Positions 12,278 to 23,486 of a stretch of 24,000 bases of DNA are shown here, piece by piece. The stretch comes from Providencia alcalifaciens (GTDB taxonomy: Bacteria; Pseudomonadota; Gammaproteobacteria; Enterobacterales; Enterobacteriaceae), in contig JAOQNJ010000001.1 of NCBI GenBank assembly GCA_025961275.1, forward strand, positions 59,353 through 83,352, read 5' to 3'. How positions within the stretch are numbered: the first letter of the stretch is position 1; each line of letters begins with the position of its first letter. The notes below the pieces were generated by a model. The model was not told the DNA's origin, ran no database searches, and was given only the letters and a program-made list of their open reading frames with translations. Made by a program: the position numbers and the translations under genes.

Positions 12278-13591
12278 ATGTTTGACTATATACTTTCTTT
12301 AGGCGGTACTGTTTTTGTTCCAATAGTCATGATCATCATTGGGTTGATATTCCGCATTCCTTTATTACAAGCTATCAAAGCAGGTGTTACGGTCGGTATT
12401 GGTTTTGTCGGTATGGGTTTGGTTATCGTCATGGCGATTGACAGTCTGAGTTCCCCAATCAAAATTATGATTGAACGTTTCGGTTTATCTCTACATGTAC
12501 TTGACGTAGGTGCGGGGCCAGCATCTGGGGTGGGATATGCAACAGCAATTGGTGCGATGATTATTCCAACCATATTTCTACTCAATATTGCACTATTGTT
12601 TACGCGTTTAACGAAAACGATGAATGTCGATATTTATAACTATTGGCATTACGCGATCACTGGAACCGTAGTGCAACTTGCTACAGGTAGCATAAGCTAT
12701 GGTATAGCAGCCGCAATGTGTCATGCCATACTTTCGTTTAAAATGGCTGATTGGACAGCAAAGCGTGTACAAGCTATCGTCGGTTTGGAAGGCATCTCAA
12801 TTCCACAAGGGTATGGTTCTAGCTCTGTCCCCCTTTTTGTATTGCTCGATTCAATCTATGAAAAAATTCCATTCATGAAAGGAAAAAATGTTGATGCTCA
12901 AGCTATCCAAAAACGCTATGGCATGATTGGCGATCCGGTCATTATTGGGGTTGTACTTGGTTTATTATTTGGGTTAGCCGCAGGAGAAGATTTTAAAGGC
13001 TGTTCGACACTCGTGATCACGGTTGCGGCGATTATGGTGTTGTTTCCTCGAATGATCCGTTTGATTGTTGAAGGGTTATTGCCTATCTCTGAAGGTGCAC
13101 GAAAATTTTTCCAGAAACATTTTCGTGATCGCGAAGTATACATAGGCTTAGATACAGCGGTGACATTGGGACATCCAACTACGATAGCCGTTGGTTTAAT
13201 CCTCATTCCAATCATGCTAGTACTTGCGAGTATTCTTCCATTAAATAATGTGTTACCGCTGGCGGACTTGCCAGTTGCACCTTTCTTTATTTGTATGGCT
13301 ACTGTAATCCATCGAGGTGATTTACTGCGCACATTGCTTAGCGGTGTGATTGTGCTGAGTACGGTTTTGCTTATCGCAAGTGAGTTCGCGCCTTTCTTCA
13401 CCGAAATGGCTCGCAGTGGAGGATTCAATTTTGCCGAAGATGGGGCACAAATTAGTGCATTGTCCGTAGGTAATATGTTTGGTTGGTCTATCTACGAATT
13501 AATGTCATTTGGTTTTATTGGCGTAATAGTGACAGTGGGAATTGTCGCTTGTGTTGTTATCTTCTTACGCAATTGTGAACTATCAGAATAG
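12278..13591 (+). CDS. sgcC: PTS galactitol-family EIIC permease
   Basis: The 437-aa polytopic membrane protein is nearly identical in its N-terminus to E. coli SgcC (MFDYILSLGGTVFVPI...GVTVGIGFVGMGLVIVMAIDSLS). The match continues through NVDIYNYWHYAITGTVVQL. Confidence 0.92.
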   Translation: MFDYILSLGGTVFVPIVMIIIGLIFRIPLLQAIKAGVTVGIGFVGMGLVIVMAIDSLSSPIKIMIERFGLSLHVLDVGAGPASGVGYATAIGAMIIPTIFLLNIALLFTRLTKTMNVDIYNYWHYAITGTVVQLATGSISYGIAAAMCHAILSFKMADWTAKRVQAIVGLEGISIPQGYGSSSVPLFVLLDSIYEKIPFMKGKNVDAQAIQKRYGMIGDPVIIGVVLGLLFGLAAGEDFKGCSTLVITVAAIMVLFPRMIRLIVEGLLPISEGARKFFQKHFRDREVYIGLDTAVTLGHPTTIAVGLILIPIMLVLASILPLNNVLPLADLPVAPFFICMATVIHRGDLLRTLLSGVIVLSTVLLIASEFAPFFTEMARSGGFNFAEDGAQISALSVGNMFGWSIYELMSFGFIGVIVTVGIVACVVIFLRNCELSE

Positions 13592-13601
13592 GAGTATGGA
13601 A

Positions 13602-14408
13602 ATGAGTTGGTTAAAGGAAGTTATTGGAACAGAAAAAGCAGTCATTGCCATGTGTCATTTGAGAGCGCTGCCGGGGGATCCTGATTTTAATCGGCATCAT
13701 AACATGCAATGGGTACTTGATAGAGCATATGACGACCTAATGGCGTTACAAAATGGGGGGGTGGATGCGGTTATGTTTTCCAATGAGTTCAGTTTACCTT
13801 ATCTCACTAAAGTCAAACCTGAAACCACTGCTGCAATGGCGCGGGTTATTGGCCAATTAATGGGAGAAATACGTGTACCTTTTGGTGTGAACGTACTTTG
13901 GGATCCCGTTGCCTCCTTTGATTTAGCCATGGCAACGGGTGCTAAATTTATCCGAGAAATATTTACGGGTGCTTATGCAAGTGATTTTGGTGTATGGGAT
14001 ACCAATGTAGGTGAAACAATTCGCCATCAACACCGAATTGGGGCTAGTGATGTAAAAACACTGTTTAATATTGTACCTGAAGCCGCTATTTATTTAGGTG
14101 GACGTGATATTTGTTCCATAGCGAAATCGACCGTTTTTAATAATAAACCTGATGCTTTATGTGTTTCTGGGTTAACTGCAGGAGCAAAAACAGATAGTGC
14201 TATTTTAAAGCAAGTGAAAGATACGGTGCCGGATACTGTCGTTTTCGCGAATACGGGAGTTTGTCTTGAAAACGTTGAAGAACAACTCAGTATTGCTGAT
14301 GGATGTGTGACGGCTACCACGTTCAAAAAAGACGGTGTTTTCGCCAATTTTGTTGATCAGTCACGAGTTGAAAGATTTATGGAGAAAGTGCAGGGCATAA
14401 GACAATAA
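13602..14408 (+). CDS. sgcQ: BtpA/SgcQ-family TIM-barrel protein of unknown function, 268 aa
   Basis: MSWLKEVIGTEKAVIAMCHLRALPGDP and GGVDAVMFSNEFSLPYLTKVKPETTAAMARVIGQL match E. coli SgcQ. The start is set at the ATG at 13602, 7 nt after AGGAG (13590-13594). The track start at 13542 lies inside sgcC. Confidence 0.9.
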   Translation: MSWLKEVIGTEKAVIAMCHLRALPGDPDFNRHHNMQWVLDRAYDDLMALQNGGVDAVMFSNEFSLPYLTKVKPETTAAMARVIGQLMGEIRVPFGVNVLWDPVASFDLAMATGAKFIREIFTGAYASDFGVWDTNVGETIRHQHRIGASDVKTLFNIVPEAAIYLGGRDICSIAKSTVFNNKPDALCVSGLTAGAKTDSAILKQVKDTVPDTVVFANTGVCLENVEEQLSIADGCVTATTFKKDGVFANFVDQSRVERFMEKVQGIRQ

Positions 14409-14409
14409 A

Positions 14410-14436
14410 AAGAGATAAGTCAAAAACTTATCTCTT
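14410..14436. other. Perfect 11-bp hairpin directly after the sgcQ stop codon
   Basis: AAGAGATAAGT-CAAAA-ACTTATCTCTT. A T-run follows the stem only when it is read on the minus strand (TTTATTG). On the plus strand an A-run precedes it. Confidence 0.5.
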
Positions 14437-14450
14437 GGAATAATGAATCA

Positions 14451-14494
14451 ATAGAGACCCCGCAATCTTCGCCAAAAGGTAGGCGGGGCTCTAT
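14451..14494. other. GC-rich interrupted hairpin in the sgcQ-sgcA spacer
   Basis: ATAGAG(A)CCCCGC pairs with GCGGGGCTCTAT. That gives 12 bp with one bulged A and a 19-nt loop. No T-run follows on either strand. Confidence 0.45.
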
Positions 14495-14533
14495 AAACAA
14501 GCATATACAGAACTCCAAAGGAGTCAATATACA

Positions 14534-14968
14534 ATGATTGATGATGTAAAATGGATCCAAATAAACCAAGTGGCTAAGGATTGGAAAGATGCTATCGCTA
14601 TTGCCTGTACACCTTTAATTACCCATGGTGCAGCTGAGCCACGTTATTTACAAGGTATCATTGAAAACACCAAAAATTGGGGGCCGTATTACTTAATTGC
14701 TCCAGGTATTGCAATGCCTCATGCAAGACCCGAGCAAGGTGCGATTCATAATCAAGTCGCGGTAACTATACTCAAACATCCCGTTGTTTTTGGTCATGAA
14801 GATTGTGATCCTGTGTGGTTATTAATTGGTGTTTGCGCCACACAGAGTGATGACCATATTCGATTAATCCAGCACATTACCCAGTTTATTGATAATTCAG
14901 TATTACTTGATGAAATTCGTGTTGCTCATACAGCAAGTGACGTTTTTACATTAATAAATGCACAGTGA
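14534..14968 (+). CDS. sgcA: PTS EIIA component (EIIA-2, mannitol/fructose/ascorbate type)
   Basis: The 144-aa ORF contains GPYYLIAPGIAMPHARPEQG with the phosphorylatable His, and DPVWLLIGV. It is colinear with E. coli SgcA. Confidence 0.9.
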   Translation: MIDDVKWIQINQVAKDWKDAIAIACTPLITHGAAEPRYLQGIIENTKNWGPYYLIAPGIAMPHARPEQGAIHNQVAVTILKHPVVFGHEDCDPVWLLIGVCATQSDDHIRLIQHITQFIDNSVLLDEIRVAHTASDVFTLINAQ

Positions 14969-14990
14969 TATAGATATGAGGGGAATTGCG

Positions 14991-15620
14991 ATGATCATAC
15001 ATCCATCTTTGGCTTCAGCTGACCCTCTGCGTCTGGGGGACATTATGGATAATTTTGCTAATGAAGAGATTGGTTCACTCCATTTAGATATCGAAGATGG
15101 TAATTTTATCAGTAATATTACTTTTGGGCTCAAAGTGGTGAAGGCTGTTTCACAAGTGACAAAGCACGCATTATCAATCCATTTAATGGTTGTACAGCCT
15201 GCTTTTTGGATACGAGAACTCGCTCCTTTTAGTCCTAAATGGATTTTCTTTCATCCTGAAGTTGTTCAAAATCCTTCAGAAATTATTGCCGAGATAAAAA
15301 AGATAGGCGTCAAAGCCGGTTTAGCATTGAACCCCGCAACACAGTTTGAGCCTTACCAGTATTTAATTGAACAGTTTGATGCTGTAATGGTGATGACGAG
15401 TGAGCCTGATGGGCACCATCAACAATTTATTTCTAATATGAAAGATAAGATTCAAAAAATTACACAAATGTCACCAAAATTAGCGTGTTGGGTCGATGGT
15501 GATGTCAATCTGGATAACATCACAATATTAAAAAAAGCCGGTGCAACGCACTGTGTAGTGGGTAGATCGCTTTTTTCAAACGATAATTACGCTATAACGC
15601 TTGAAAAATTAAGACATTAA
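14991..15620 (+). CDS. sgcE: Ribulose-phosphate 3-epimerase paralogue, 209 aa
   Basis: MIIHPSLASADPL, GSLHLDIEDGNFI, FHPE, LNPAT and VMVMTSEPDG are Rpe-family motifs, and the protein is colinear with E. coli SgcE. The start is set at the ATG at 14991, with a GAGGGG SD upstream. Confidence 0.9.
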   Translation: MIIHPSLASADPLRLGDIMDNFANEEIGSLHLDIEDGNFISNITFGLKVVKAVSQVTKHALSIHLMVVQPAFWIRELAPFSPKWIFFHPEVVQNPSEIIAEIKKIGVKAGLALNPATQFEPYQYLIEQFDAVMVMTSEPDGHHQQFISNMKDKIQKITQMSPKLACWVDGDVNLDNITILKKAGATHCVVGRSLFSNDNYAITLEKLRH

Positions 15621-15638
15621 ATTCGGAAGGAGACAGCG

Positions 15639-16412
15639 ATGAGTTTGTATAAATCTGATCGGATCCAGCAGATGTTACATTATCTTTGGAAATGTCGAGA
15701 GCTTTCAACGCAGCAAGCTATTGAACTATTTGGATGTGCAGAAGCTACTATCCGGCGCGATTTTCAATATATTGCCGAGCATTATCCAGGAATGAAGCGA
15801 ACGCATGGGCGTCTTGATTTTGATGATAGCACCACAGATAAAGAGTCCCAATTTGATGTTAGGCGTTCCTTAAATTGTAAATTTAAACGTGAAATTGCCT
15901 TAATTGCTCGTGAATTAATTCATGAAGGAGATTGTTTTTTTCTTGATTCAGGCTCTACATGCCTTGAATTAGCAAAATGCCTAAATGATATTAAAGTGAA
16001 AGTGATTTGTAATGACATAAAAATAGCCAATCAATTAGGTGCGTTTCCAAATGTGGAAAGCTACATTATTGGAGGTCTAATAAGACCGGGCTACTTCACG
16101 GTTGGGGAAAGTTTAGCACTAGAAATGTTAAATTCATTTGCGGTTGATCGCGTATTTATGTCTTGCGATGCACTTTCTATCGAAATGGGAATCACTAATG
16201 CCACGATGTTTGAAGTTGGGGTAAAGCGAAAATTGATTACACGTTCTCAGGAGGCCATTTTACTTGCAGACCATACTAAGTTCGATATGTTTGAGCCACA
16301 TGCAGTTGCAACCTTGTCATGTATTAAGACCATTGTAACTGATAGCGGTTTATCGAGTGAAATCCAACAGCGTTATCGGCAGGCTGGATATGAATTAAAA
16401 TGTGGTTATTAA
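15639..16412 (+). CDS. sgcR: DeoR-family transcriptional regulator (HTH plus DeoR-C sugar-phosphate sensor domain)
   Basis: The 257-aa ORF has an N-terminal HTH (LSTQQAIELFGCAEATIRRDF) and C-terminal DeoR-type motifs (FLDSGSTCLELAK, DRVFMSCDAL, LLADHTKF). It occupies the last position of the sgc operon, as in E. coli. The symbol is assigned from context. Confidence 0.8.
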   Translation: MSLYKSDRIQQMLHYLWKCRELSTQQAIELFGCAEATIRRDFQYIAEHYPGMKRTHGRLDFDDSTTDKESQFDVRRSLNCKFKREIALIARELIHEGDCFFLDSGSTCLELAKCLNDIKVKVICNDIKIANQLGAFPNVESYIIGGLIRPGYFTVGESLALEMLNSFAVDRVFMSCDALSIEMGITNATMFEVGVKRKLITRSQEAILLADHTKFDMFEPHAVATLSCIKTIVTDSGLSSEIQQRYRQAGYELKCGY

Positions 16413-17343
16413 TTTTTTTTATAACTTCTAAAGAAATAAAAAATTGCGTTGGATAAAAGATGTGAACCCAAATACTCTGTCTTATTAGATGAAATCTATA
16501 GCCTATTTCTTCACTCAGCCTAAGTACATCTAAACTGTAAATTCACTGAATAAAGCAGATCAAAGAATAATACGAAATCATCACATCAGTAGGGTTGTCC
16601 GATTGATTGAGGATTTCTGATAAGTAAATTCCGCAAGTAATAATTAAAAATGTAGCATATTATCTGGTTTCAACATAACGTGACTGTCCCGCGAGTTTTT
16701 AGACTAATTAAATATTCAATAGCGAGATAATGGAAATAAATAACGCCAATATAGTGCTTTTAGTTCATTGATAGAGCCTTGTGGCTATTTATCTTTGCCG
16801 CTGATTTTTACTGACTAATCGGTTTAAATAACAGCAATAAACTCATATCACGTAATTGAGTGTCTAAAAAAACATCACCCTAAACCCTAAATGAAAAGCG
16901 CCCTTCGGGTTCGATTAAACGCGATTTTTCGCTGTATTGAGCGACTCTCGCCTTGCTTGAAATACGTGCAATTAGAATCAAAATTGACCTTCAAAGATAA
17001 ACAGCGCCTAGTGCTTAAAATTAAATTTTTTAAATGCGAGCTATTAAGGCTAAACAAATATCATGTTTAATTGCTAAATTAGCAATATATTATACTTATA
17101 TTTTTGAGTTGGAATAAAGCCAAATTAAAATAAAATATAAGTATTTAAAATAAAGATTAAAATTTAATATTATGTTTGGGGATTAATCTAAGCTTCTAAT
17201 TTTAAGCCTCTTTATTATTAAAAAAACGTAATCTGATGTTGAGAAAGTTAGTTATAACAATTTAATGTAATAAATGAGCGTGGAATCACAGTAATTAATT
17301 CTCCTTTAAGATTAGAATCTATTTAATCTTCAGGAGGAATTCT

Positions 17344-17793
17344 ATGATCTCAAGTTTTGCTTCATTTATAAAAATAAGCTTTCTATTTTTGCTCTCTTTT
17401 GATTGCAAATCTAGGGCTGTTTTGAGCAAAATTTGTTGGTTTATTCCTATCTCTTCTTTAGAAAAAGATGAGTCAATTTATAATCAGCAGTCAGAAAGTG
17501 ATATTTCGACTAATTGGTCTCAGTTATGGCTGAGTGCTCAGAAACTTTGTGTTTCTTTATGCTCAAATACGGCTGAAATTATTGAAAATAAAGTTTCTTC
17601 GAAACAATTAACGTCGCTTAAAGCGCGTAAGCGTTATGAACTACTGTTCTTATCCCTTGTTTCAAGCTTACGCCAATTGATGGTTTGCCGTCACTCAAGT
17701 GGTGCGCCTGGAAATATTAACGGTTCATCATTAAAGCTTTTAAAAGCACAATGCGCATTTTTGCCATTGTGCTTTTTTTATTATCTAAATTAA
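17344..17793 (+). CDS. Hypothetical 149-aa protein or leader ORF with no recognisable family
   Basis: This is the only long ORF in a 1.4-kb AT-rich gap. It has a strong SD (AGGAGG, 17332-17337) 6 nt before the ATG and a hydrophobic N-terminus (MISSFASFIKISFLFLLSF). It is Ser/Leu/Cys-rich and uses several rare codons. An intrinsic terminator lies inside its last 17 codons, so its coding status is uncertain. Confidence 0.4.
   Translation: MISSFASFIKISFLFLLSFDCKSRAVLSKICWFIPISSLEKDESIYNQQSESDISTNWSQLWLSAQKLCVSLCSNTAEIIENKVSSKQLTSLKARKRYELLFLSLVSSLRQLMVCRHSSGAPGNINGSSLKLLKAQCAFLPLCFFYYLN
17742..17779 (+). terminator. Strong intrinsic terminator or attenuator immediately upstream of the PTS IIB gene
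   Basis: AAAAGCACAATG (17742-17753) pairs with CATTGTGCTTTT (17765-17776) in a 12-bp stem. The loop is CGCATTTTTGC and the T-run spans 17773-17779 (T7). The structure ends 32 nt before the IIB ATG and 12 nt before the stop codon of the 149-aa ORF. Confidence 0.75.
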
Positions 17794-17811
17794 ATTTTTC
17801 AAGGAGTTGTT

Positions 17812-18132
17812 ATGTTTATAGTTTGTGTCGCGGCGTGCCCTACAGGAGTTGCTCATACTTATATGGCTGCGGAATCGCTCGATATTATTGGGAAAAAAAG
17901 AGGACATGAAATAAAAGTTGAAACCCAGGGAAGTATGGGGATTGAAAATGAAATTACAGATGAAGATTTAGCGCGTGCAGATGCGGTCGTGCTTGCAGCA
18001 GATGTTGCCATTATCAATAGAGAGCGCTTTGATGGGATGATTAAACTTGAATGCAGCGTTGCAGATCCCATTAAGCACGGAGATGCCATTTTTGATGCGA
18101 TAGAGCAGGAGATAAATAATGGTGAAGTTTAA
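17812..18132 (+). CDS. PTS fructose-family EIIB component (FrwB/FryB-like)
   Basis: The 106-aa ORF has VAACPTGVAHTYMAAESL with the active-site Cys in the CP(T/S)GVAHT motif, and KVETQGSMG. AAGGAG lies 5 nt upstream of the ATG. Confidence 0.9.
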   Translation: MFIVCVAACPTGVAHTYMAAESLDIIGKKRGHEIKVETQGSMGIENEITDEDLARADAVVLAADVAIINRERFDGMIKLECSVADPIKHGDAIFDAIEQEINNGEV

Positions 18133-19234
18133 AGGGGGCTCAACACCAGGTATTGGTACTGAGATTAAAAATGCCATTATGACCGGTGTATCATGGATGC
18201 TGCCATTCGTGATTGCAGGTGCAGTGATTATGGGTATTTCTCGTATCGGTGCATCGATGTATGGCATTGATAATATTTGGGATTCAAGCCATGCAGAAGC
18301 GACCAATGTCATCATTCAGATGCTACATAAATTTGATGGTTTTGGTGGATTAGCGCTGTCATTAATGCTGCCTATTGTCGCGGGCTATATCAGTTTTGCG
18401 ATAGCTAATAAGCCAGGTTTAGCACCCGGTATGGTGGGTGGATTACTGGCGAGCAATCTCGGAACTGGCTTTCTTGGCGCGCTTGCAGCTGGGTTTATTG
18501 CTGGATGTATGGTTCGATTATTGGCTAAATATATCAAACTACCAAAGTCACTTGCTTCAGCAGGGCCAATCTTTATCTTGCCAGTAGGTGGAATATTACT
18601 AACCTGTTGCATCATGGCATTTGTGATTGGCGCTCCTTTAGCTGCGCTTAACCATGGAATGGAAAATTGGTTATTATCCATGTCTGGTTCTAACAAGATT
18701 ATTTTAGCGATGGTTATTGGTGCGATGGTGGGCTTTGACCTTGGTGGACCGATAAATAAAGCCGCTGTCACCACCGCAATGGCATTGTTGGCATCGGGAA
18801 TTTATGAACCAAATACTGCGGCACAAGTTGCTATCATTATTCCACCGATTGGTATTGGTGTAGCAACCTTAATATGGGCAAAACGTTTTCCAGAATCTTT
18901 GCGTGAAGCAGGAAAAGCCTCCACATTAATGGGATTAATTGGGGTTTCAGAAGGTGCAATTCCATTTGCTTTAGCGAATCCAAAAATCATCATTATTAAT
19001 ATTATTGGCTCTGCAACGGGCGCGGCAATGGCTGTCGGCCTTGGTACGTTAAACCATGCACCTATTTCTGGATTTTATGGATGGTTAGCTGTGGATAAAT
19101 GGCCGATATATGTATTATCGGTAGCGGTGGGCTCCGCAATTATTACAGTTGGGTCATTATTAATTTTTCGTGGGGCTGAACCAGTAGAAAATAAAAAAAC
19201 AGAAGCTGCTCCTAAATTTAAAGTAGGTCGTTAA
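18119..19234 (+). CDS. PTS fructose-family EIIC permease (FrwC/FryC-like)
   Basis: The 371-aa polytopic membrane protein has MTGVSWMLPFVIAG, FDLGGPINKAA and GVSEGAIPFA, which are characteristic of fructose-type IIC. It overlaps the IIB gene by 14 nt, and AGGAG lies 8 nt upstream of its ATG. Confidence 0.9.
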   Translation: MVKFKGGSTPGIGTEIKNAIMTGVSWMLPFVIAGAVIMGISRIGASMYGIDNIWDSSHAEATNVIIQMLHKFDGFGGLALSLMLPIVAGYISFAIANKPGLAPGMVGGLLASNLGTGFLGALAAGFIAGCMVRLLAKYIKLPKSLASAGPIFILPVGGILLTCCIMAFVIGAPLAALNHGMENWLLSMSGSNKIILAMVIGAMVGFDLGGPINKAAVTTAMALLASGIYEPNTAAQVAIIIPPIGIGVATLIWAKRFPESLREAGKASTLMGLIGVSEGAIPFALANPKIIIINIIGSATGAAMAVGLGTLNHAPISGFYGWLAVDKWPIYVLSVAVGSAIITVGSLLIFRGAEPVENKKTEAAPKFKVGR

Positions 19235-19331: not shown

Positions 19332-21917
19332 ATGAAAACCGTACATTTAATTCAACACACTCACTGGGATCGGGAATGGTATTTCACTGAAAATGATTCT
19401 AAAGTTATTCTTTATTATTTTATGAATGATTTAATGAATCATTTGGAAGAAGACCCGTCTCTAGGTCCTTTTATTCTTGATGGACAAACGGTGGTGTTGG
19501 AAGATTATTTACAAATTGCACCAGAGCAGCGTGAACGTTTACAACAATTAATTAAACAAGGCCGAATTCTTATTGGGCCTTGGTATACCCAAACAGATTT
19601 TTTAGTTGTCGGTGCCGAGTCTATTGTTCGTAATTTACTTTTAGGACGAGCAGATTGTGAAGCTTGGGGTAGCTATATGCCTGTTGGTTATGTGCCTGAC
19701 TCATTCGGGCAAAGTGCTCAGCTTCCTCTATTTTTAAATGAATTTGGTATTAAGCATGCCGTGGTGTGGCGTGGGTGGTGCGAACATGATGTAGCAAATA
19801 GTGAATTTATCTGGAAATCCCACTCAGGACATCATGTCACGGCAGCAGTGTTGCCTTGGGGATATGGTTGCGCCAAATGGTTGCCAGATAATACAGAGAA
19901 AGCACTAACCGTACTCCCGACGATCCTTGAAAAACAAGCTCGTTTTGCGCATTCAGACCAAGTTTTATTGCCGAACGGTAATGACCAATCGCCATTTGAA
20001 TACACGGTTCCTGCAATGTTAGAGCGCTTGAATACCGAGCAAAAAGAGTATTATTTTGTAAAAAGTAGCTTCAGTACCTTTTTCGAGGCTTTACAAGCGA
20101 AAAGCCAACAACTTACTGAATTTAGTGGTGAACTACTTAGCCCTAAATATATGCGTGTCCATCGTGGAATTTTCTCCACTCGCATGGATATAAAATTACT
20201 CAATGCTCAGCTTGAACAATTTGTGAGCCAGCAACTCGAACCATTATTATCGATCAATTGGCGATTAGGACTGCCTTATCCACACACTGCAGTGGAAAAT
20301 ATCTGGCGTGAAGCGATGCAATCCCATGCACATGACAGTATTGGTGGATGTAATTCAGATAGAGTCAACAGTATGGTTAAAGCGCGATTAAAAGATGGAT
20401 TAGAAAGTGCAAACCAATTGTATGATCTCAATATGAAAATGTTAGCGAGAGGGGTTGAAGCAACGCAGGAAGGTAAGAAAATAATTGTATTCAACTCACT
20501 CCCTCATAAACGTGACGCACAGGTTCGTATTACCTTATATACGCCAGAGACTGATTTTTGTATCAAGGATCACAATGGTAAAGCCTGTCGTTGGCAGTTA
20601 ATCCAAGAACAACCTCAAGATATGTCATTGATTGTTCAAGAACTAGCGAATAGTACAACAACAACGTGGTATCGCAAATGTGAAGTATTACTTGAAGTAA
20701 CGGATTTACCTTCTTGTGGTTATCGCACGCTTTACCTTCAAGAAGGACAAGCTGCGGGCTTTGAATTTGAACCTCAAATGCAAGAACAAAATGCATTAGA
20801 AAATGAATGGCTACGGCTTGAAATCAATCAAGGCGAATTAACATTAATTGATAAACGTAGTCAGCAACGTTATCCGCATGTTTTACGTTTAGTCGATGGT
20901 GGAGATTTTGGAGATAATTACAACTATTCCCCACCAGAAGAAGATTGGTTGATTAGTAGTGATGGACACTTACAGCAATTTGAATGTGTGAGAGCGCCAT
21001 TAATGGATAGTTTTATTTTGAATTGGAAAATGCCAGTTCCACAAAATGCACAAGCTCGCCAAGCACATCAATTAAACGCTGTTTTAGAAACGACCATGAA
21101 GGTTTCTTTACCTCATGATAACGCATGGTTAGATATTGAAGTTACGGTCAATAATACGATTCAAGATCACCGTTTACAGGTTGAGATACCAACCGAAATT
21201 CTACAAGAATTCCATTTTGCTGATCAACCATTTGGTTTAATTCAGAGAGAAAATCAGCCAGCAGCACTTGAGCTTTGGCAAAATGAAAACTGGTCCGAGG
21301 CTCCAACGGCTTTGTACCCAATGCAAAGTCTCGTTATGCAACATAATGATCATCAAGGAATATGTGTCGTTACAGAAGGTTTACGTGAATATGAAATTCC
21401 AGCATCTCGTACTGATGTGATTGGATTGACCTTATTCCGAAGTGTTGGTTGGTTAGGTCAAGCAAACCTAACTTGGCGTCCAGGGCGGGCCTCTGGCATG
21501 GTTTTACCTTCACCGGATTCACAAATTCAGGGTATTCATCATTTTCATTTTGCTGTGTTACCAATGCATCAAGGCCAAGATACCGATTTCTGGCGAAATG
21601 TGGAACATTGGCGCTTACCCGCGTTCGGTTATTTAGATTCAGGTTGGTCACAATTTAAAATGAATCCACATTATATTGTTTTTCCTGAAAATTATAGTCT
21701 TTTGACTTGGGATTGTAACTTGCATTTCAGTACGCTAAAAAAAGCGCAAAACGAGGATGCATTAGTGTTACGTAGCTGGAATCCTAGTTTCGAACCAATA
21801 ACGTACGAGTCGCCTAAGTCAAATACCAAGATCCAACAAGTTACTTTAGCTGAATCTGCGTGTACCAATACGGATAGTGCAGCGCCTTGTGCGCCAGTGT
21901 CTTGGTTAATTAGTTAA
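19332..21917 (+). CDS. Glycoside hydrolase family 38 alpha-mannosidase (MngB-like, cytoplasmic)
   Basis: The 861-aa ORF has HTHWDREWYFT, GPWYTQTD, ESIVRNLL, VPDSFGQS, LPNGNDQ, MRVHRGIFSTRMDIK and HAHDSIGGC. It is colinear with E. coli MngB and other GH38 enzymes and has no signal peptide. Confidence 0.92.
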   Translation: MKTVHLIQHTHWDREWYFTENDSKVILYYFMNDLMNHLEEDPSLGPFILDGQTVVLEDYLQIAPEQRERLQQLIKQGRILIGPWYTQTDFLVVGAESIVRNLLLGRADCEAWGSYMPVGYVPDSFGQSAQLPLFLNEFGIKHAVVWRGWCEHDVANSEFIWKSHSGHHVTAAVLPWGYGCAKWLPDNTEKALTVLPTILEKQARFAHSDQVLLPNGNDQSPFEYTVPAMLERLNTEQKEYYFVKSSFSTFFEALQAKSQQLTEFSGELLSPKYMRVHRGIFSTRMDIKLLNAQLEQFVSQQLEPLLSINWRLGLPYPHTAVENIWREAMQSHAHDSIGGCNSDRVNSMVKARLKDGLESANQLYDLNMKMLARGVEATQEGKKIIVFNSLPHKRDAQVRITLYTPETDFCIKDHNGKACRWQLIQEQPQDMSLIVQELANSTTTTWYRKCEVLLEVTDLPSCGYRTLYLQEGQAAGFEFEPQMQEQNALENEWLRLEINQGELTLIDKRSQQRYPHVLRLVDGGDFGDNYNYSPPEEDWLISSDGHLQQFECVRAPLMDSFILNWKMPVPQNAQARQAHQLNAVLETTMKVSLPHDNAWLDIEVTVNNTIQDHRLQVEIPTEILQEFHFADQPFGLIQRENQPAALELWQNENWSEAPTALYPMQSLVMQHNDHQGICVVTEGLREYEIPASRTDVIGLTLFRSVGWLGQANLTWRPGRASGMVLPSPDSQIQGIHHFHFAVLPMHQGQDTDFWRNVEHWRLPAFGYLDSGWSQFKMNPHYIVFPENYSLLTWDCNLHFSTLKKAQNEDALVLRSWNPSFEPITYESPKSNTKIQQVTLAESACTNTDSAAPCAPVSWLIS

Positions 21918-21935: not shown

Positions 21936-23486
21936 ATGCAAACATTTTTTTTTCGTTGCGAACTTTCGAATGGTATCCATGCTAGGCCTGCCAATGCATT
22001 GGAGCAACAAACAGCGAATTTTCAATCAGAGATAACGCTATTCAATAAGAGTAAATCTCGTCAGGCAAATGCTAAAAGTGTTTTGGCATTAGTCGGAGCA
22101 GATGTCACCATGGGTGATGAATGCTATTTTCAAATTCAAGGAATTGATGAAAATATTGCTTATGAAAAGCTCAAATCATTTATTGAACAAGAGTTTATGC
22201 ATTGTGATGCTCCAATTGTTCATGAAGAGTCTACAGAGCAACAAGCACTGCCTGTTTTTATCAGTCGCACAACATCCTCTATTTTGCGTGGAAATGGTGT
22301 TAGCAAAGGGCTAGCAAAGGGTAAAATTGTTTTTATTCATTCGCCAGATTTGCAAAATTTGGCCCAAGAAGAATCTGATAGTTCATTAGCTCAGCAATCC
22401 GAAGCACTCAAAAATGCATTGCAAATTGCACGTGAAAAACTTCGCTTTGATATTCAACATGCTGAGGGCGAAATTGCCAATATATTAGAGGCACAAAGTC
22501 AGTTACTTGATGATGAAGATGTTGAAGCGTGTTTACTTGAGCAAAATCAGGCACGCAATGAGATAGACGCATTGGCAATGGCAATTGAAGAATTAAGCCT
22601 GCCATTCCGTGAAAGTAGCAGCGAATATTTACGCCAACGTGAGTTGGATATTAAAGATTTAGGATTGCGGATTGCCATCAATCTTAATATTAAGTCCAAG
22701 ATTCAATTACCTGAATTAAAACAAGATTCTATTATTGTATGCCATGGGTTGTTAACACCGGGACAGTTACTGACATTACAAAGTCCTTATTTGCAAGGTG
22801 TGGTAATGGCTCAAGGTGCGGAAACATCACATACTGTTATTATAGCTCGCGCTAATTCTATTCCACTTATGTGTGTGAGTAATGATGCAATTGAAGCATT
22901 AAAAAATGCACACTCTTTACTACTGGATTCACGCTATGACGCGTTAGTTGTTGAGCCAGATATTCGTGCAGAGGATTGGTTTACGTTTGAAAACGACAAA
23001 TTATCTCGCTTATCGTTATTCAATGAGCAAACTGACTCTGACATGCCTGTGTTAACACCACACTTAGTCTTGCTTGATAAGGTGATAACTAGCAAAGATG
23101 AAGTGATCAAGATACTGACTGATAACTTAGAGATCAAGGGTCGTACTGATTCAGGCTCTCAGGTTGAATTTGCTATTTGGCAGCGCGAACAAATTTTCAG
23201 TACTGCTTTAGGATTTTCAATTGCTATTCCACATTGTAAATCGTTGGCTGTTAAGCACAGCAGTATTTCCGTATTGAGATTGTCTGAAGAATTAGCTTGG
23301 GGAGATAATGTTGATGTTAAATTAATCATTATGTTGACGATTAATGAAAATGAAGAAAATCAACATATGCGAATTTTTTCTGTACTCGCACGAAAATTAA
23401 TGCATGAATCGTTCCGTGATCAAATAATGACTGCTAAACACCCAAGTGAGGTCGTTGCTTTATTAGAGAAGGAATTGGCATTATAA
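21936..23486 (+). CDS. Multiphosphoryl transfer protein: HPr domain, Enzyme I N-terminal (HPr-binding plus phosphohistidine) domains and EIIA(Fru/Mtl type). The PEP-binding C-terminal domain of EI is absent.
   Basis: Residues 1-90 form the HPr domain, with NGIHARPA (His15, nt 21978-21980) and KS at 47-48. Residues ~115-345 are colinear with E. coli EI residues 1 to ~250, including GAETSHTVIIARANSIPLM (His299, nt 22830-22832). Residues ~372-516 are an EIIA-2 domain with AIPHCKS (His433, nt 23232-23234). Only about 25 residues link the EI swivel domain to IIA, so there is no room for the ~300-aa PEP-utilizer TIM barrel. Confidence 0.88.
   Translation: MQTFFFRCELSNGIHARPANALEQQTANFQSEITLFNKSKSRQANAKSVLALVGADVTMGDECYFQIQGIDENIAYEKLKSFIEQEFMHCDAPIVHEESTEQQALPVFISRTTSSILRGNGVSKGLAKGKIVFIHSPDLQNLAQEESDSSLAQQSEALKNALQIAREKLRFDIQHAEGEIANILEAQSQLLDDEDVEACLLEQNQARNEIDALAMAIEELSLPFRESSSEYLRQRELDIKDLGLRIAINLNIKSKIQLPELKQDSIIVCHGLLTPGQLLTLQSPYLQGVVMAQGAETSHTVIIARANSIPLMCVSNDAIEALKNAHSLLLDSRYDALVVEPDIRAEDWFTFENDKLSRLSLFNEQTDSDMPVLTPHLVLLDKVITSKDEVIKILTDNLEIKGRTDSGSQVEFAIWQREQIFSTALGFSIAIPHCKSLAVKHSSISVLRLSEELAWGDNVDVKLIIMLTINENEENQHMRIFSVLARKLMHESFRDQIMTAKHPSEVVALLEKELAL

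Follow-up and report, generated by a model that had tools for sequence, protein, structure and literature searches.

A conserved, unannotated first gene that reads through an intrinsic terminator ahead of a mannoside phosphotransferase operon: a candidate translation-gated attenuator

How can a sugar operon be controlled specifically when it carries no transcription factor gene of its own and an intrinsic terminator stands just before its first transport gene? This question is raised by a mannoside phosphotransferase system (PTS) operon of Providencia alcalifaciens, which lies in the window analysed here, a stretch of 24,000 nucleotides from the forward strand of contig JAOQNJ010000001.1 (assembly GCA_025961275.1, positions 59,353 to 83,352). 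Coordinates below are those of the window, and the features of the operon lie on its + strand. The terminator sits inside the 3' end of an open reading frame (ORF) of 149 amino acids that has no annotation and runs from an ATG at 17344 to a TAA at 17791-17793. Its Shine-Dalgarno (SD) sequence, AGGAGG, is located at 17332-17337, 6 nt 5' of the ATG; most relatives have a GGAG-type SD at the same position as in the window. An initial annotation of the window had placed both the ORF and its SD correctly, and had described the ORF as a leader whose translation may act on the terminator. Judged from the comparisons described below, the ORF is almost certainly a real and previously overlooked gene. 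Its translation may gate the embedded terminator ahead of the mannoside PTS genes, a reading to which an even chance is given here. The first cistron would then be a route to specific control of a sugar PTS operon that has no transcription factor of its own.

The gene was assessed in 24 genome loci that were fetched with the enzyme IIC (IIC) protein of the operon as query. A tblastn search with the ORF, a check which the initial annotation had proposed, found a match immediately upstream of the enzyme IIB (IIB) gene in 22 of these loci, from Providencia, Enterobacter, Cedecea, Superficieibacter, Buttiauxella and Rahnella. In two Psychromonas loci, the relative was recovered by frame reading and a profile search. 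All 24 loci keep this frame open, starting at a conserved ATG, in contrast to the interrupted ORF that had been named as evidence against coding. When the set is widened to the 30+ loci examined (Providencia, Enterobacter, Cedecea, Buttiauxella, Rahnella, Superficieibacter, Chimaeribacter, Photobacterium, Psychromonas and metagenomes), a relative of the ORF lies directly 5' of the same operon of IIB, IIC and a GH38 alpha-mannosidase in every case. Every member with a readable context stands immediately 5' of IIB-IIC-...-GH38, and this position is kept by the distant members found in metagenomes, on a Chimaeribacter plasmid and on a Photobacterium replicon.

Databases contain the family only sparsely. 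A search of 5.8 billion proteins returned full-length Providencia relatives at 51-95% identity and one fragment of 102 aa; no Pfam domain is present in these proteins, and "hypothetical protein" is the label of the few with a source name. Among 1.84 billion representatives, a profile search identified only 31 clusters of the family at 50% identity, with lengths of about 140-185 aa except for a few fragments and one fusion to IIB. A metagenomic gene call (P0032) fuses the ORF in frame to IIB to give a product of 263 aa. On the Chimaeribacter arupi plasmid p251 (locus L036, 3601-4140), a complete record, the annotation pipeline PGAP leaves the ORF unannotated. A search of the literature for this gene family, operon, leader or arrangement found nothing specific. 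The family is conserved yet often absent from annotation, and can be described as an overlooked gene family.

Selection on the ORF acts at the level of the protein. The first ~133 residues of a 17-sequence alignment hold hardly any insertions or deletions, even at 15-40% identity. Most lineages have the first invariant Trp 57 aa from the ATG, compared with 53-56 aa in locus L003, Rahnella and Psychromonas. Conserved residues include C31, W58, W62, L92, L100, F102, C115 and G120. The ratio of nonsynonymous to synonymous substitution (dN/dS), calculated by the Nei-Gojobori method over codons 1-125 in 22 pairs, is 0.03-0.31 in 21 of them, with dS saturated in the remaining pair; IIB gives 0.01-0.10 in the same pairs. 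This comparison, which had also been proposed in advance, points to purifying selection. Third-position changes are in clear excess over codons 1-125, and even the invariant residues L39, G120 and L68 have a third-position entropy of about 1-2 bits. Because this entropy is high throughout, the constraint acts on protein and not on RNA, and the view of the ORF as non-coding was rejected. Rfam at E <= 1 returned only a sub-threshold match to a streptococcal small RNA, located on the hairpin (27.8 bits, where the gathering score is 55). Together with the near absence of indels, the dN/dS and entropy values delimit a conserved domain at codons 1-124 (17344-17715), followed by a variable tail of codons 125-149 and the TAA (17716-17793) that crosses the hairpin and its T-run. 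The term "leader" understates the ORF, which codes for a protein kept by purifying selection and contains a conserved domain of about 124 aa.

The identity of the product is less easily approached. The initial annotation recognised nothing in it, and the same holds for Pfam (E <= 0.01), NCBIfam (above noise), a profile search of the PDB, and Foldseek, none of which gave a match. A degenerate EIIA was considered, since the size is suitable, and was rejected because the PF00359 signal is absent. An AlphaFold model based on 31 sequences predicts three long helices at residues 2-30, 51-80 and 86-119, with a predicted local distance difference test score (pLDDT) of 70.6. A model from 14 sequences was unusable (pLDDT 44), and Foldseek matches would not be meaningful given the unconfident packing of the helices. 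Hydrophobic residues mark the N-terminal segment, whose best Kyte-Doolittle value over 19 residues is 1.0-3.0; it is interrupted by charges and is borderline as a membrane span. The Psychromonas subfamily has a second hydrophobic helix at residues 96-116.

The terminator within the gene consists of a hairpin at 17742-17776 and a run of seven T at 17773-17779. It had been placed at 17742-17779, in the last 17 codons of the ORF and 32 nt before IIB, and the present analysis confirms this position; the hairpin begins at codon 133. Its layout is AAAAGCACAATG-C-GCA-tttt-TGC-CATTGTGCTTTT, that is, a 12-bp stem, one bulged C and 3 further pairs. The fold has a predicted energy of -19.3 kcal/mol compared with a shuffle mean of -7.3 (z = -5.9), and none of 200 shuffles is as stable. 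A simple consensus terminator scan returned 0 sites, where the bulge and inner loop probably place the hairpin outside the rules of the scan, and the direct fold supersedes this result.

The hairpin is very probably a selected RNA element. When the 130 nt before IIB are aligned, the sequence on either side of the hairpin, a 5' linker and a 3' spacer, varies strongly. The element AAAGCACAATGCGC-loop-GCCATTGTGCTTTTTTT is near-invariant across Enterobacterales, with both arms base-for-base identical in most, and both arms are exact even where IIB is about 80% identical and the ORF protein only 32-45% identical to those of the window. The core CAC(A)/(U)GUG, together with the flanking A-run and T-run, is invariant in Enterobacterales, Photobacterium and Psychromonas. 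Pairing holds in 96.8% of cells across 17 diverse copies, and five of the 13 pairs show compensatory double changes, a degree of covariation reached by none of 500 shuffles; the pairing collapses when partner columns are slid. One-sided stem changes are all A to G in the 5' arm and yield G-U pairs. These changes are compatible only with a hairpin in + strand RNA and therefore argue against a DNA operator; with the flanking A-run and T-run also conserved, the reading of the palindrome as an operator is disfavoured. RNAalifold, applied to the last 130 nt of 15 loci, predicted the terminator hairpin as the sole conserved structure, and an antiterminator or alternative hairpin was thus rejected as the control device. 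The invariant hairpin of 35 nt can also serve as a search key for the operon and for annotation repair, with the pattern AAAGCACAATGNGC-N4-8-GCCATTGTGCTTTTT.

The relation between the gene and the terminator is most clearly seen in the tail. Past about codon 124, the protein sequence is set by which of the three frames reads the hairpin, giving KAQCAF.PLCFF, KHNA.F.HCAFF or STMR..AIVLFL. All three frames are in use, even inside Providencia, and some lineages change frame in the loop, so that selection does not act on the tail as protein. Over the 75-86 nt between G120 and the end of the T-run, the frame in use has no stop codon in any of 27 loci, whereas one or more stops interrupt the two unused frames over the same stretch in 14 and 19 of the 27. 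Since the unused frames are open in about 39% of cases, and at least 8 independent frame changes have occurred, the probability of this pattern by chance is about 5e-4, a rough figure that carries no phylogenetic correction. The initial annotation had noted that the stop codon (17791-17793) lies beyond the end of the T-run at 17779, and this extends to all 27 loci, in whichever frame the tail is read. The stop is located 4 to 127 nt past the T-run, frequently inside IIB. Because its position varies in this way, the selected property is "do not stop before the terminator" and not translational coupling to IIB. The Psychromonas ORF reads through two tandem hairpins. Stop avoidance in three frames provides comparative evidence for translation across a terminator as a selected trait, in a natural intrinsic terminator that lies within the 3' end of a genuine gene and has been maintained by evolution. 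To our knowledge, ribosome occlusion of terminators has so far been documented in pyrimidine operons and synthetic constructs.

Transcription of the gene and the operon likely starts at a class II CRP-dependent promoter. A predicted CRP-binding site, TGAGCgtggaaTCACA, is located at 17275-17290, with its centre about 42 bp before the inferred start at about 17325, so that it would sit near -41.5 in place of a -35 element. The -10 hexamer TAGAAT lies at 17313-17318, and the 5' untranslated region would be about 19 nt. The window site reads TGAGC-N6-TCACA and the cross-genus form TGTGN-N6-TCACA. It stands 21-22 nt before a -10-like hexamer in all genera, with its distance to the ATG also kept, and every locus keeps the -10 position, which reads TAGAAT, TACACT, TATAAT, TATTAT or TACTAC. 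CRP-like matches with up to 2 mismatches number 16 in the window compared with 12 expected, which is not above chance, and the significance of the site comes from its conservation across genera and not from the window alone. Upstream of the ORF, conservation is confined to about 17260-17343 even among Providencia species, and the CRP site with the -10 is the only upstream sequence conserved across genera. This promoter had been offered in the initial annotation only as an alternative. The spacer at 16413-17260, about 850 bp, is AT-rich (GC content 21-37%) and has no long ORF; it is unconserved in other Providencia, except that the closest relative matches it weakly and in patches from about 17066, and other Providencia genomes have a similar gap of about 930 bp ahead of the module.

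The promoter, gene and hairpin travel with the operon. The mobile unit is CRP promoter - ORF - hairpin - IIB - IIC - GH38 - phosphotransfer protein, and its flanks change by genus, with BacA, LacY, an AraC-type gene, a gpmA-like gene or, in the window, an sgc-like operon with a DeoR gene. No regulator gene is conserved nearby across genera, in line with the earlier remark that no transcription factor belongs to the operon. In Psychromonas ossibalaenae (locus L035, 8001-8471 and 9796-10308), the module of CRP site, ORF and hairpin is present twice, one copy before a porin gene and the second, which has the two tandem hairpins, before IIB. Neither ORF copy is disrupted, and purifying selection acts on both (dN/dS 0.24 and 0.38).

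A scheme in which translation decides the fate of the transcript would connect these elements. CRP with cyclic AMP would switch on transcription from the single class II promoter at about 17325. A lead ribosome following close behind the polymerase would then occupy the 5' arm, so that the hairpin is blocked and the polymerase reads on into IIB. If translation of the ORF were absent, slowed or paused, the hairpin would form and transcription would end at about 17779, leaving a short mRNA without a stop codon. The likeliest pause site would be the conserved block SSLRQLMxCRHSSG at codons 107-120, because this block would be moving down the exit tunnel as the ribosome covers the last 40-80 nt ahead of the T-run. 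The tail of about 25 aa would be free to vary and would have one constant job, to carry the ribosome over the terminator at 17742-17779. We infer termination at about 17779, its control by ribosome position, and a sugar- or PTS-specific input from the protein or the nascent chain. A translation-coupled attenuator is favoured because such a device predicts that the ORF stop will always lie past the T-run. The attenuation reading of the initial annotation accordingly survives in its geometry, a terminator spanned by an ORF, and loses its anti-SD hairpin and its membership of the bglG class, both considered below.

Published work on coupled transcription and translation fits such a scheme. Over the first ~100 bp of a coding region, the ribosome usually still lags behind the polymerase (PMC4824070), and the hairpin described here, about 400 nt into the ORF, lies past this region. 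In E. coli, the coupled lead ribosome partly to fully represses the terminator tR2 when this stands late in a gene or a few bp past its end, and the repression is tuned by translational pausing and translation dynamics (PMC4824070). Transcripts that end at terminators inside ORFs are reported to be non-stop mRNAs, which trans-translation deals with (PMC4824070). At rph-pyrE, shifting the rph stop codon relative to the attenuator alters pyrE expression (PMC2784333).

As far as its structure allows, the arrangement would work most like the pyrBI and rph-pyrE attenuators, with which it shares an intrinsic terminator between promoter and genes, an ORF across the terminator and the lack of a competing antiterminator. 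In rph-pyrE of E. coli, as here, a full-length gene and then an intrinsic terminator precede the regulated gene, and an alternative antiterminator hairpin is absent; readthrough is decided there by the position of the upstream stop relative to the hairpin (PMC2784333), and may be decided here in like manner. However, rph ends just before the attenuator, whereas the present ORF crosses the hairpin and T-run fully. The upstream gene here belongs to a dedicated family found solely with this operon and is no housekeeping enzyme, no pause logic sensitive to uridine triphosphate (UTP) is evident, and the stem sequence itself is conserved across orders. The pyrBI leader, pyrL, is likewise translated across its terminator so that a coupled ribosome blocks the hairpin (see also PMC4824070), but pyrL is a peptide of 44 codons without conserved protein function, whereas about 124 codons are under purifying selection here and the hairpin is met only ~400 nt into the ORF. 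The synthetic constructs with tR2 in an ORF (Li et al. 2016, PMC4824070) also have a late intrinsic terminator with the stop past the U-tract, partly to fully repressed by translation with an efficiency tuned by pausing; those are engineered, whereas the present case is natural and kept by selection across at least three Gammaproteobacteria orders. What seems new on this comparison is a putatively translation-gated terminator with a dedicated, conserved protein-coding "leader", found across at least three orders of Gammaproteobacteria.

Other classes of leader resemble the locus less closely. The BglG/SacY/LicT systems also place a first PTS-operon gene and then a terminator before the permease genes, with an operon-specific factor as the likely source of sugar specificity. 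The product of the ORF, however, has no CAT or PRD domain in Pfam, NCBIfam or the PDB, there is one terminator and it lies inside the gene, no ribonucleic antiterminator (RAT) element is present, and the sequence 5' of the hairpin is variable. The bglG analogy drawn in the initial annotation fails on these points, as neither a CAT or PRD domain, a second terminator nor a RAT-like alternative structure was found. Leader attenuation of the trp/his type is not matched either, as the locus has 149 codons of conserved protein and no alternative hairpin. The likeness to SecM, VemP, MifM and TnaC is geometric only: a length of about 150 aa, a hydrophobic N-terminus, a best-conserved block that is C-proximal (107-120), a position directly before the putatively controlled genes and, in Psychromonas, duplication of the module in cis before each controlled unit. 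In contrast to those proteins, there is no similarity to known arrest motifs, so that stalling is only a candidate property; the conserved block ends at least 25 codons before the stop; and the downstream element is a terminator and not an SD-masking helix or Rho site.

Several observations weigh against a purely translational gate. Coupling alone does not explain the purifying selection on 124 codons or the near-invariance of the stem; the known relatives, which sense UTP via polymerase pausing, require no conserved protein, and this leaves the selection on the codons unaccounted for. Conservation of the stem sequence goes past the need of a plain terminator, which hints at a sequence-specific partner outside the model. 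Nothing in the sequence points to the signal. In the AlphaFold model, the packing of the helices is not confident (predicted template modelling score 0.29), so no sensor fold can be named. The near-invariant Cys115 is Phe in the distant member P0037 (locus L039, 1269-1721), which argues against an essential catalytic or phospho-acceptor Cys; the hairpin arms of this member are almost identical to those of the window despite the replacement.

One extension of translational gating would give the conserved protein a function of its own. The first cistron could be a nascent-chain sensor, or "monitoring substrate", in which codons 107-120 slow the ribosome from within the exit tunnel. An event on the emerged N-terminal part would relieve the slowing, and the distance between ribosome and polymerase would then decide the terminator. 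Relief could come from binding of the mannoside or of its phosphate, from contact with IIB/IIC or with the phosphotransfer protein of the operon, or from membrane insertion. This extension is regarded as improbable. If true, it would be the first device resembling an arrest peptide to act on the intrinsic terminator of a sugar PTS operon, and it would explain the cis duplication of the whole promoter-ORF-hairpin module in Psychromonas.

Explanations that place the function in the finished protein must account for the same observations. The product could act in trans as a new RNA-binding protein, possibly controlled by PTS phosphorylation, that prevents or stabilises the AAA(G/A)CACA...UGUG(C/U)UUU hairpin, following a bglG-like logic without CAT or PRD domains. 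Conservation of the stem sequence far past structural need would fit this explanation, as would the constant co-occurrence of protein and hairpin, the phosphotransfer protein encoded by the operon, and the fact that the product is the only operon-specific regulator candidate. However, the hairpin stays identical while the protein falls to 26-45% identity, which suggests a conserved host partner instead, and the product has no RNA-binding or other known domain or fold, with no RAT-like alternative structure at its supposed target. An open frame through the T-run in all three frames and the retention of both Psychromonas ORF copies would also be left unexplained, and a trans-acting role is considered unlikely. 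Somewhat more doubtful still is a structural accessory, that is, a small membrane-associated subunit or chaperone of IIC, with the terminator as a constitutive partial stop that sets the transcript ratio. The hydrophobic N-terminus, the second hydrophobic helix (96-116) of the Psychromonas subfamily and the strict linkage to IIB-IIC are consistent with such a role, but the hydrophobic segments hold charged residues and are borderline as membrane spans, and one Psychromonas copy precedes a porin gene and not a permease. Stop avoidance across the hairpin and the invariant stem would have no explanation, and excess first-gene product from a non-stop mRNA would be wasteful. The non-stop transcript could itself be the design, such that terminated transcripts give a protein that is tagged by transfer-messenger RNA and destroyed, and readthrough alone gives stable protein as feedback. 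SsrA tagging of LacI is a comparable feedback device. The stop codon lies past the T-run in all loci, and terminators in ORFs have been reported to give non-stop mRNAs (PMC4824070). This explanation makes the same sequence predictions as translational gating and can coexist with it, but it would still require a regulatory role for the protein; it is held to be very unlikely.

Two further explanations depend on elements outside the gene. A longer 5' leader, starting upstream of 17296, would contain a hairpin at 17299-17338 that controls translation of the ORF by masking its SD. The pairing elements named in the initial annotation, CTCCT at 17301-17305 and AAGATTA at 17308-17314 with TAATCTT at 17324-17330, are present, and the helix has a predicted energy of -14.5 kcal/mol in the window, with a weaker form in the closest relative, L001. 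They are, however, not conserved: CTCCT is lost in L001, where the pairing is weakened, and is absent in L002, L025, L031 and all other genera. The z value is only -1.9, with 9 of 200 shuffles folding as well; nothing upstream of about 17260 is conserved; and the helix contains the conserved -10 and sits upstream of the inferred start. Seen in the window and its closest relative alone, the anti-SD hairpin was rejected, and riboregulation of this kind has the lowest standing of all, being barely credible. Nearly as implausible is an independent promoter for IIB in or just after the hairpin, for example with the -10 hexamer TATTAT at 17779-17784, which would make the hairpin the end of a one-gene transcript. 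This hexamer is present in the window and "TTTATT" after the T-run is common in relatives, but in other genera the hexamer becomes TATTGC, TATTGT or TATGTC or is missing, often with loss of the essential final T, and the putative -35 falls in the variable loop of the hairpin. A promoter scan found nothing between hairpin and IIB, and the alignment has no conserved promoter-like element there, which agrees with the initial judgement that a full sigma70 promoter is hard to fit into the 32 nt before IIB; this interval has no room for a promoter. An ORF that spans the hairpin would again be left unexplained.

The genes downstream of the terminator form a compact operon. IIB (17812-18132) belongs to the fructose/lactose type (PF02302, E = 5.8e-18); its ATG lies 32 nt past the T-run and is preceded by an SD, AAGGAG, at 17801-17806 that is conserved in the alignment. 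IIC (PF02378) follows at 18119-19234, and with 98% identity it places the window close to P. burhodogranariea. A MngB-like alpha-mannosidase of family GH38 (PF01074, PF09261, PF07748) is encoded at 19332-21917. The last gene, at 21936-23486, encodes a multiphosphoryl transfer protein that comprises HPr, the N-terminal and mobile domains of Enzyme I (EI), and EIIA(Fru/Mtl) (PF00381, PF05524, PF00391, PF00359). Its product of 516 aa lacks the PEP-utilizers_C catalytic barrel (no match to PF02896), whereas the counterpart in Psychromonas and in the metagenome locus L039 has 829-832+ aa with the barrel present. This looks like an in-frame domain loss; if true, the protein would depend on the general Enzyme I. 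The operon is absent from E. coli, which has at most a weak similarity in frwB.

The neighbourhood of the operon differs between lineages. An sgc-like PTS operon lies upstream in the window at 12278-16412 and encodes an EIIC-GAT, a BtpA/SgcQ-like protein, an EIIA_2, a ribulose-phosphate 3-epimerase and a DeoR regulator. The DeoR gene (15639-16412) was considered as regulator of the mannoside operon and rejected, as it is part of the neighbouring sgc-like operon and the neighbours vary by genus; in other genera, the DeoR of this operon is unlinked to the mannoside operon. In other Providencia (loci L025-L034, at about 12306-12447), a KdgM-family porin gene follows the operon. One metagenomic lineage (locus L038, 3864-5981) has a Metallophos phosphoesterase between IIC and GH38, and another Metallophos phosphoesterase adjoins the Psychromonas locus.

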